From Candidatus Magasanikbacteria bacterium RIFCSPLOWO2_12_FULL_43_12 (GTDB lineage: Bacteria; Patescibacteriota; Patescibacteriia; Magasanikbacterales; UBA922): 51,006 nt of DNA. Below the pieces are notes generated by a model that searched no databases, was not told the DNA's origin, and saw only the letters and a list, made by a program, of their open reading frames with translations. Below are positions 24,698-24,773 of this stretch, piece by piece. The stretch spans positions 1 through 51,006 of the forward strand of contig MFQN01000018.1 of the NCBI GenBank assembly GCA_001783065.1, in the 5' to 3' direction. The position numbers and the translations under genes are program-made. The number at the start of each line of letters is the position of its first letter. Position 1 is the stretch's first letter.

Positions 24698-24773
24698 GGG
24701 CCGATAGTTTATCTGGTTAAAACGTCACCCTTGACAAGTGAAGAGCGGGGTTCAAGTCCCCGTCGGTCCACCA
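24698..24773 (+). tRNA. Atypical tRNA: Ala-type acceptor stem (G3.U70, A73, encoded CCA); anticodon ambiguous (TGA in canonical register, GAC if a CC bulge is allowed)
   Basis: Acceptor GGGCCGA/TCGGTCC-A-CCA, D stem GTTT/AAAC, T arm CGGGG-TTCAAGT-CCCCG, 4-nt variable loop, anticodon arm TCACCCTTGACAAGTGA. Confidence 0.8.

Follow-up and report, generated by a model that had tools for sequence, protein, structure and literature searches.

The closest described relatives of the element analyzed here are unusual bacterial transfer RNAs (tRNAs). The tRNAProX genes of Streptomyces and Kitasatospora, as far as they are covered by the accessible text of PMC10404621, adjoin a special paralog of prolyl-tRNA synthetase, possess ordinary loops and proved toxic when expressed in E. 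coli. The allo-tRNAs of Mukai et al. (PMC5389517, again for the portion available) were found near toxin-antitoxin genes, and two of their variants were lethal in E. coli. Among the toxin-antitoxin systems, type VIII comprises RNA toxins, for which the available excerpts give CreT and SdsR as examples. Here we describe a tRNA gene at positions 24698–24773 (+) of contig MFQN01000018.1 from Candidatus Magasanikbacteria bacterium RIFCSPLOWO2_12_FULL_43_12; the whole stretch that was analyzed, 51,006 nucleotides (nt) long, is referred to below as the window. The gene is part of a self-contained cassette of two RNA genes (24553–24805), the other one encoding a candidate small RNA directed against the tRNA. 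It is very likely that such an RNA-only two-gene cassette exists in these tiny bacteria of groundwater, and it is apparently undescribed. As to its function, we tentatively suggest, with somewhat less than even confidence and on the grounds of sequence comparisons, that the tRNA may be a tightly silenced mis-decoding tRNA, so that the pair would resemble an RNA-only toxin-antitoxin system.

An extra tRNA with an alanine acceptor end

ARAGORN reported the gene as a 76-nt tRNA of the type Ser(tga), one of four tRNAs in the window, and the Rfam search placed its cloverleaf above the cut-off of the tRNA family RF00005 (53.6 bits at a cut-off of 29, compared with 60–68 bits for the window's three other tRNAs). 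The acceptor stem GGGCCGA/UCGGUCC yields the pairs G1-C72, G2-C71 and G3.U70 and is followed by A73 and an encoded CCA (24771–24773), which is missing in the three other tRNAs of the window and present in 17 of the 49 tRNA genes of the genome. Pair 7:66 is the sole difference between this acceptor and those of the genome's own tRNA-Ala(UGC) and tRNA-Ala(GGC). Nothing unusual is seen in the D and T arms, and 4 nt make up the variable loop. The anticodon arm UCACC-CUUGACA-AGUGA (24725–24741, +) consists of a stem of only 4 base pairs (bp; 24725–24728 with 24738–24741) and a 9-nt loop, CCUUGACAA, with C31 (24729) and A39 (24737) forming an unpaired C.A throughout the family described below. In the canonical register the anticodon is UGA (U34-G35-A36, 24732–24734), in a shifted register it is GAC (G35-A36-C37, 24733–24735), and position 37 is a C. 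The first-pass annotation, which was made from the sequence of the window, had read the acceptor pairs, A73, the encoded CCA and its absence from the other three tRNAs, the C31.A39 mismatch, UGA and C37 correctly, and its view of an alanine identity set on a tRNA with a non-alanine anticodon is supported both by the sequence and by the tRNA set of the genome.

The combination of features sets the gene apart from the familiar tRNA classes. G3.U70 and A73, the determinants recognized by alanyl-tRNA synthetase (AlaRS), are those of a tRNA-Ala isoacceptor; the anticodon is not NGC reading GCN, be it taken as UGA in the canonical or as GAC in the shifted register, and of the 41 relatives described below a single one has AGC, again as its shifted triplet. 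With its 4-nt variable loop and A73 the gene differs from a tRNA-Ser(UGA), which requires a long variable arm and G73, while the Ala-type acceptor and the location of GAC at positions 35–37 of a 9-nt loop are at odds with a tRNA-Val(GAC). An allo-tRNA would exhibit a long variable arm and a 12-bp acceptor/T branch in an 8/4 or 9/3 arrangement instead of the 7/5 arrangement with a 4-nt variable loop found here, and the full cloverleaf is incompatible with a transfer-messenger RNA (tmRNA). The element at 24698–24773 is a genuine, selectively maintained tRNA with the acceptor end of a tRNA-Ala.

The genome (1.05 Mb, 34 contigs, marker completeness 99.6%) encodes a normal 90-nt tRNA-Ser(UGA) on contig C14, a normal tRNA-Val(GAC) on contig C3 together with Val(CAC) and Val(UAC) elsewhere in the genome, and normal tRNA-Ala species with the anticodons UGC, CGC and GGC. 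The tRNA under study is therefore not the sole serine or valine isoacceptor, but an extra, anticodon-uncoupled one. There is one alaS gene, located at C13:5522-6895. GUU and GUC together account for 56% of the valine codons and about 4% of all codons, and UCA for 18% of the serine codons. ARAGORN detected no tmRNA across the genome, although relatives encode SmpB (e.g. beside the cassette of locus L022). As a side observation on the tRNA repertoire, a tRNA-Tyr(GUA) at positions 4898–5186 of one contig was called only with introns allowed, with a 205-nt intron after position 37.

The similarity search of 61 relatives revealed two clear homologs, likewise called Ser(tga). When 240 genomes of the order were searched with a pattern that left positions 34–37 free, 15 copies turned up in 12 of them, and the reversed control gave no hits; a stricter pattern recovered the tRNA from 4 of 401 genomes in a sample of the class, including two that lie outside the order. 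Scanning the species-genome collection yielded 30 stretches, and the metagenome contigs contributed 38. Once the hits that are not tRNAs or not members (L026, L029, L037, L040, L044, L047, L053, L071, L080 and L104), the odd L039 and L048, the probably normal tRNA-Ala L075 and the duplicate L058 (identical to L018) had been set aside, 41 distinct tRNA relatives remained. According to the record titles, nearly all members come from bacteria of the candidate phyla radiation (CPR), mainly from Magasanikbacteria, and additionally from Uhrbacteria, Paceibacterota and Giovannonibacteria/Parcubacteria, with one labelled Saccharibacteria.

An alignment of 39 relatives provides evidence for selection on the cloverleaf: 93.3% of the stem cells are paired, compared with 78.7% in shuffled alignments (none of 500 shuffles reached the observed values), and 14 of the 21 pairs are altered on both sides, with such compensatory changes in all four stems. 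Pair 31:39 is C.A in all 39 sequences and a standard pair in none; the seemingly distorted arm with its C31.A39 mismatch is thus a conserved trait of the family. The loop always has the form Y32-U33-U34-N35-N36-N37-A38, where U34 was left unforced in the pattern used for the 240 genomes, while the later patterns forced the loop letters U33, U34, A38 and A39. The triplet at positions 35–37 is variable, with GAC in 26 of the 41 sequences, GGU in 7, AAC in 4, and GAU, GAG, AGC and AUC in one each. The region 24540–24815 is identical in a contig from another study. A diverged variant contig exhibits 8 substitutions, of which 7 fall in the spacer (24664–24683) and one affects the D loop, so that the anticodon arm and the antisense segments of the small RNA are unchanged.

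The antisense small RNA and the tRNA leader

About 80 nt upstream of the tRNA lies a putative small RNA of about 70 nt (24587–24657, +), whose ends were deduced from its promoter and terminator. The promoter (24553–24580, +) comprises TTGACA, 16 nt and TATACT with TG upstream, i.e. 11 of 12 consensus matches, and promoter-like sequences can be read by eye at the matching place in other loci. The intrinsic terminator (24632–24656, +; GGUCUCC, loop, GGAGA, U run) was recognized from sequence and fold, and a terminator hairpin is present in all small-RNA loci listed. The RNAfold prediction comprises an outer helix P1, an inner hairpin and the terminator (-32.1 kcal/mol), and this layout recurs in 37 distinct loci. 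In a search of 24540–24820 against Rfam no family fits the small RNA even at E<=10, T-box RF00230 included.

Judged from its sequence, the small RNA is antisense to the 5' half of the tRNA (positions 8–21, 25–33 and 34–43), with which it co-evolves. The 5' segment, AGGGUGACG (24587–24595, +), is the exact complement of tRNA positions 25–33 (7/7 Watson-Crick pairs for 27–33) and co-varies with tRNA position 32, which is matched in 17 of 20 loci (C:G in 9, U:A in 8). The inner hairpin (24595–24611, +) has a 5' strand and loop complementary to the D arm (about positions 8–21): the predicted helix with the tRNA sequence UAGUUUAUCUGGUU reaches 14 bp when G.U is allowed, against a maximum of 11 in 200 shuffles, and across the 37 loci the D-arm complement averages 8.9 bp, vs 6.1 for shuffles, and reaches 12 bp or more in 7. 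The 3' segment, UCACUUGUCA (24616–24625, +), forms 10/10 Watson-Crick pairs with tRNA positions 34–43, and its last four letters, GUCA (24622–24625), are single-stranded in the predicted fold.

The complementarity of the 3' segment recurs across the family: of the 21 distinct loci examined first, 20 can form 9 or all 10 of the pairs to positions 34–43; the exception is G024, a variant with the triplet GAU. Among the metagenome loci, 24 exhibit 10/10 Watson-Crick pairs and 7 exhibit 8–9 plus one or two G.U pairs or mismatches (the remaining 7 are non-members, have truncated flanks, or, like L099, resemble G024). Positions 35, 36 and 37, i.e. the very ones that vary, are matched by Watson-Crick pairs in all 20 loci, each position through two or three types of pair, so that GAC is accompanied by ..UUGUCA, GGU by ..UUACCA, AAC by ..UUGUUA, AGC by ..UUGCUA, GAG by ..UUCUC and AUC by ..UUGAUA. 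In L010, L014, L017 and L022, where the tRNA stem contains a G.U pair or a mismatch, the small RNA is the complement of each strand of the tRNA and sacrifices its own helix. The complement being kept at this cost, selection acts on intermolecular complementarity and not on mimicry, and the possibility that the small RNA imitates an anticodon helix was rejected on this ground. A tag peptide or small open reading frame (ORF) in the small RNA was rejected as well, since the RNA contains no start codon and conservation of the reading frames is lacking past the codon-like triplet.

Such complementarity is exceptional within the genome. For the 46 normal tRNAs among the 49 encoded, the upstream complement to the anticodon arm does not exceed 8 nt, and stretches of at least 10 nt were found only for the tRNA under study (10) and for two odd serine-type tRNAs (13 and 12). 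The predicted gain on dimer formation is -12.7 kcal/mol for cognate pairs (n=33), compared with -6.2 kcal/mol for non-cognate pairs sharing the triplet (n=532) and -4.0 for those with another triplet (n=524). By these predicted energies, 13 of 33 small RNAs have their cognate tRNA in first place and 28 of 33 have it within the top five.

The tRNA gene has its own extended -10 promoter, TG-A-TATAAT (24671–24679, +), which was read from the sequence; a simple promoter scan did not report it, because it lacks a good -35 element. TGnTATAAT-like elements occur at equal distance in other loci. The two transcription units thus differ in their promoters, that of the small RNA being near consensus and that of the tRNA an extended -10 only. 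The leader between promoter and tRNA, GGUGGACUGAU (24687–24697, +), contains GGUGGAC (24687–24693), which is complementary to G69–C75 of the tRNA itself (7 Watson-Crick pairs, or 10 bp with G.U, back to U66). In the predicted fold of the precursor this helix replaces the acceptor stem; the predicted energies are -37.4 kcal/mol for the 88-nt leader-bearing precursor and -23.4 for the 76-nt tRNA, with the different lengths to be borne in mind. Across 39 loci of the family the median leader complement is 7 Watson-Crick pairs, or 9 with G.U, and where CCA is not encoded (L022, L023, L043, L087) the leader co-varies with the genomic trailer. For the other tRNAs of the genome exact leader runs extend to 6 nt at most, and the majority lack any run that reaches 5 nt. 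The gene ends in an intrinsic terminator (24779–24805, +), recognized from sequence and fold, and a comparable hairpin with a U run follows most family members.

The genome contains a second type of cassette with the same order of elements, i.e. promoter, antisense small RNA, terminator, extended -10, leader, tRNA and terminator, in which the tRNA is of the serine type. Two such allo-tRNA-like genes were called Ile(gat) by ARAGORN, at C3:32187-32276 (-) and C11:7785-7871 (-), and a third copy, at C11:18303-18393 (+), was not called (serine-type loci are also listed as L108–L110, L113 and L115). They exhibit the acceptor GGAGAG.../...CUCUCC, G73, a long variable arm and the anticodon GAU, and in the ARAGORN drawings of the two called genes the acceptor has 8 bp and the T stem 4 bp. 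Their small RNAs contain 12–13 nt exactly complementary to the anticodon loop and stem. Serine-type relatives are present in both same-genus genomes (L111, L112, L114), with a truncated remnant at the syntenic site in G002 (L116). Several serine-type tRNAs also have a mismatch at 31:39, and the string YUUGAYA is common to both types; in the serine type, whose loops are of the ordinary 7 nt, it is located one nucleotide further 5' in the loop.

Possible function and competing explanations

Any decoding role depends on the register in which the loop is read. The canonical one would give the family the anticodons UGA, UGG, UAA, UAG and UAU, position 37 then being C, U or G, and the shifted one GAC, GGU, AAC, GAU, GAG, AGC and AUC. 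The usual signature of an anticodon loop is Y-U-NNN-R-A. The shifted register, U33'-G-A-C-A37', regains this signature as Y-U-NNN-A-A at the cost of two extra 5' nucleotides, and it agrees with the UU-GAY-A string of the serine-type cassettes; we therefore favor it over the canonical register with moderate confidence.

The alanine and serine identities are among those independent of the anticodon (PMC11028032, in the part of the text available). As AlaRS ignores the anticodon, it would be expected to charge the mature tRNA with alanine whatever its triplet. In the shifted register the tRNA would then put alanine at the valine codons GUC and GUU, possibly with poor framing caused by the two additional 5' loop nucleotides. 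With GUY codons at about 4% of all codons a tRNA of this kind would be harmful, which could explain why it would be kept silent twice, in cis and in trans. In cis, the leader would trap the 3' end of the tRNA in the 10-bp helix. In trans, the single-stranded GUCA of the small RNA would dock on the exposed loop, strand exchange would open the 4-bp stem weakened by the C.A mismatch, and pairing would extend into the D arm, whereupon the tRNA could neither fold nor decode; the resulting complex might be handed to RNase III. The cassette could then operate as an RNA-only toxin-antitoxin or addiction module, or as a gated mistranslation switch, with a stable tRNA as the effector and the small RNA as the antidote. 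The first-pass annotation had proposed a missense tRNA, and the mismatch between identity and anticodon on which it relied still stands; it had missed the upstream antisense RNA and the leader, and with them the reading moves to a tRNA under a double lock. A more elaborate version, possible but of somewhat lower probability than the general one, would see here an RNA-only addiction or defence cassette, in which an Ala-charged tRNA toxin mis-decodes or frameshifts at Val, Thr, Ile or Leu codons, the antisense RNA unfolds it by toehold strand exchange, the leader serves as a second lock and the serine-type allo-tRNA cassettes form a sister class; on this version "locked mis-decoding tRNAs" would be a general, mobile kind of element in CPR bacteria.

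Several points weigh against a silenced mis-decoding tRNA. All functional steps have been deduced from sequence and predicted energies. The 9-nt loop may be non-functional on the ribosome, and the canonical register accounts for the variation of the triplet equally well. Three of the shifted triplets (AAC, AGC and AUC) start with A, which is unusual for anticodons of bacterial decoders, so the triplet may be merely an address for the small RNA. The GAU variant G024 (the same sequence as L099) has no antisense partner within 260 nt, which implies that the tRNA can exist unguarded. The antisense blocks are permuted relative to the tRNA, which makes full simultaneous pairing with the folded tRNA sterically doubtful, and non-cognate pairs still match at 14 of 17 positions on average, because the family is conserved. 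Finally, most search patterns forced G1–G3 and U70-C72-A73, so that the alanine identity outside the family is partly a matter of ascertainment. An acceptor-free pattern run on 107 genomes of the family gave 14 hits vs 8 for the reversed control; 11 of these are tRNAs, all with the Ala acceptor and distributed over 8 of the 107 genomes, and the other three are not tRNAs.

The most serious competitor, which we regard as possible though rather unlikely, is an alanine-accepting RNA that never reads codons. Such a molecule would be charged or bound by AlaRS, with its triplet and stem as the address for its own small RNA, and would act as a sensor, sponge or switch, responding to AlaRS activity or the alanine supply, or titrating a small RNA that has another target. 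A 9-nt loop and triplets with an initial A are ill-suited to a decoder, the triplets differ within one genome as would be expected of orthogonal pairs, and the complementarity reaches far beyond the anticodon. On the other hand, U33, U34, A38 and A39 are invariant in 20 of 20 loci, which matches the Y-U-NNN-R-A signature in the shifted register and would be needless for an address, and the serine-type cassettes have ordinary 7-nt loops with the anticodon GAU.

A cis regulator of the T-box kind is improbable. In this case the upstream leader would sense the tRNA through a specifier and a complement of its 3' end and thereby set the transcription of the tRNA gene, and the order of the elements (anticodon-binding segment, terminator, 3'-end complement) does recall a T-box leader. 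However, Rfam gives no T-box match in 24540–24820 at E<=10, and the segment complementary to the 3' end lies downstream of both the terminator and the separate extended -10 promoter, hence it cannot form an antiterminator. Moreover, the pairing involves 10 nt reaching into the stem plus the D arm, unlike the 3-nt specifier, and the tRNA ends in its own terminator, so no downstream gene would be controlled.

It is very unlikely that the tRNA acts constitutively, as a missense tRNA or through reassignment of the code, such that Ser UCA or Val GUY codons would be read as alanine proteome-wide. The conservation of the mismatch between identity and anticodon would fit such a role, but the cognate Ser(UGA) and Val(GAC) tRNAs are present, GUU, GUC and UCA occur at ordinary frequencies, and the gene is carried by only 12 of 240 genomes of the order, both same-genus genomes searched being without it. 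Codon reassignment as such was rejected in view of the cognate tRNAs and the ordinary codon use.

Still less credible is the link, suggested in the first-pass annotation, with the FemX-family transferase at 14763–15761, for which the tRNA would serve as a non-ribosomal alanine donor in building cell-wall cross-bridges. The protein does match Pfam FemAB (2.2e-28), and Fem transferases use aminoacyl-tRNAs, staphylococci even keeping dedicated tRNA-Gly species. Yet all 5 of the 5 relatives examined that lack the tRNA have FemAB homologs, a distance of 9 kb separates the gene from the tRNA, no counterpart of it adjoins any of the 16 relatives' cassettes examined, and the antisense RNA and the leader lock would be left unexplained. 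The likelihood that the gene is a copy of tRNA-Ala in decay, or the product of an error in sequencing or assembly, is negligible, even though the Rfam score is below those of the neighboring tRNAs and C31.A39 and C37 resemble damage: the pseudogene is rejected on the covariation in all four stems and the 41 distinct relatives, and the assembly error on the identical contig from another study, the invariant C.A in 39 relatives and the variant contig with its unchanged anticodon arm, while the gene retains its own promoter and terminator.

Genomic context and relation to known systems

The distribution of the cassette is patchy even among close relatives. Both same-genus genomes share the order of the enolase and NIF3-like genes with this one, and the cassette is missing from the spacer between these genes, which measures 142–143 nt and contains only a terminator, vs 389 nt here. 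The terminator of that spacer (L106 and L107) acts two ways by its sequence, being a single GC-rich hairpin with an A run and a T run at its sides, and it is absent at the site of the cassette (24440–24829 of the window). No direct repeats were seen at the cassette borders when 24440–24829 was compared with L106 and L107. Two genomes, G028 and G128, carry two or three cassettes with differing triplets. A pattern search of a viral contig collection gave no matches, and a phage origin was set aside on that result, within the limits of that collection and pattern.

The analysis of the ORFs flanking this cassette and the loci of 16 relatives revealed no common protein family. Here the neighbors are enolase, a NIF3-like protein and AbiEii, and in the relatives they are mostly housekeeping proteins, i.e. 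RsmB, S12, an M50 peptidase, SufB, cysteine desulfurase, GroEL, pyrophosphatase, SmpB, RecG and RadA. Toxin genes are located near 3 of the 17 loci (AbiEii here and at L010, MazF at L060), possibly by chance. The AbiEii-family nucleotidyltransferase toxin gene of the window (25870–26544, -; Pfam 4.5e-15) is 1 kb from the tRNA, and toxins of this family include some that modify the 3' ends of tRNAs. The SufB gene beside the L015 cassette (positions 1–1464) contains a LAGLIDADG domain (Pfam 4.3e-10), which suggests an intein or a homing endonuclease insertion. Elsewhere in the window, a 16S ribosomal RNA gene (5349–6855, -; 1421 bits) departs from the bacterial model by about 17 inserted nt near model position 210 and by a deletion around model positions 450–470. 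Two matches to the Acido-Lenti-1 RNA lie on opposite strands, at 18384–18430 (-) and 18560–18606 (+), with 42.9 and 46.3 bits (cut-off 37), between the unassigned ORF 17809–18216 (+) and the 3' end of a DUF11-domain ORF (18635–20578, -).

If the reading as a silenced mis-decoding tRNA is correct, bacteria carry deliberately wrong tRNAs on an RNA leash. The cassettes would represent toxin-antitoxin or defence elements of a new class that involves no protein, and provide examples of natural antisense control of a mature tRNA and of a natural 9-nt anticodon loop. They would also account for the sporadic allo-tRNAs and hybrid tRNAs near toxin-antitoxin genes. Even on a cautious view, the co-varying pair of tRNA and small RNA constitutes a clean, compact and orthogonal system of RNA-RNA recognition. 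In practical terms, annotation pipelines mislabel members of the family as tRNA-Ser, tRNA-Pro or tRNA-Leu, which may distort predictions of tRNA complements and genetic codes in CPR bacteria. The literature search, whose scope did not extend to subscription journals and supplements, found no published tRNA with a dedicated anti-anticodon small RNA.

The comparison with known systems reveals partial similarities to each of them. Like the T-box (RF00230), the cassette would involve recognition of a specific tRNA by RNA via its anticodon and, separately, its 3' end; it differs in that there is no match in sequence or structure, that the pairing, of 10 to about 30 nt, would unfold the tRNA, and that the upstream element has its own terminator with no downstream gene under control. 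Enlarged anticodon loops are known from the yeast mitochondrial tRNA-Thr(UAG) and the frameshift suppressor SufJ, in both of which the extra nucleotide is on the 5' side. As described in the accessible parts of the corresponding reports (PMC7609411 for tRNA-Thr(UAG) with its 8-nt loop, PMC4238358 for SufJ), these tRNAs have one extra nucleotide and a defined decoding role, whereas here two are gained via the invariant C.A.

The resemblance to type I and type VIII toxin-antitoxin systems, as outlined in the portions of the literature available, comprises two adjacent small genes, an antidote RNA (here a putative one) with a strong promoter that base-pairs with the RNA of the effector, a patchy occurrence in the manner of a cassette and the existence of several orthogonal copies. 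A tRNA in the part of the toxic RNA is not known from any system of these types, the term "suppressor tRNA" being absent from the matching literature to the extent that its text was accessible, and for the present cassette the comparison is based on architecture and co-variation. With the allo-tRNAs (PMC5389517, in its available portion) the tRNA shares the uncoupling from the anticodon, a synthetase identity that ignores it and, at some loci and possibly by chance, the nearness of toxin-antitoxin genes. It differs in its 7/5 acceptor/T arrangement and short variable loop; the likeness is carried further by the serine-type, 8/4-like GAU tRNAs, which occur in this same genome in cassettes of matching layout. 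A small-RNA partner of allo-tRNAs is not described in PMC5389517, where the word "antisense" is absent, as it is in PMC7609411. The tRNAProX genes, as far as the accessible text of PMC10404621 goes, are like the tRNA described here in being extra and genome-encoded, in the discordance between acceptor identity and anticodon, and in their sporadic occurrence. In contrast to them, the tRNA at 24698–24773 has no synthetase partner, the genome having its one alaS, and combines an alanine identity and a 9-nt loop with an antisense RNA and a self-complementary leader.

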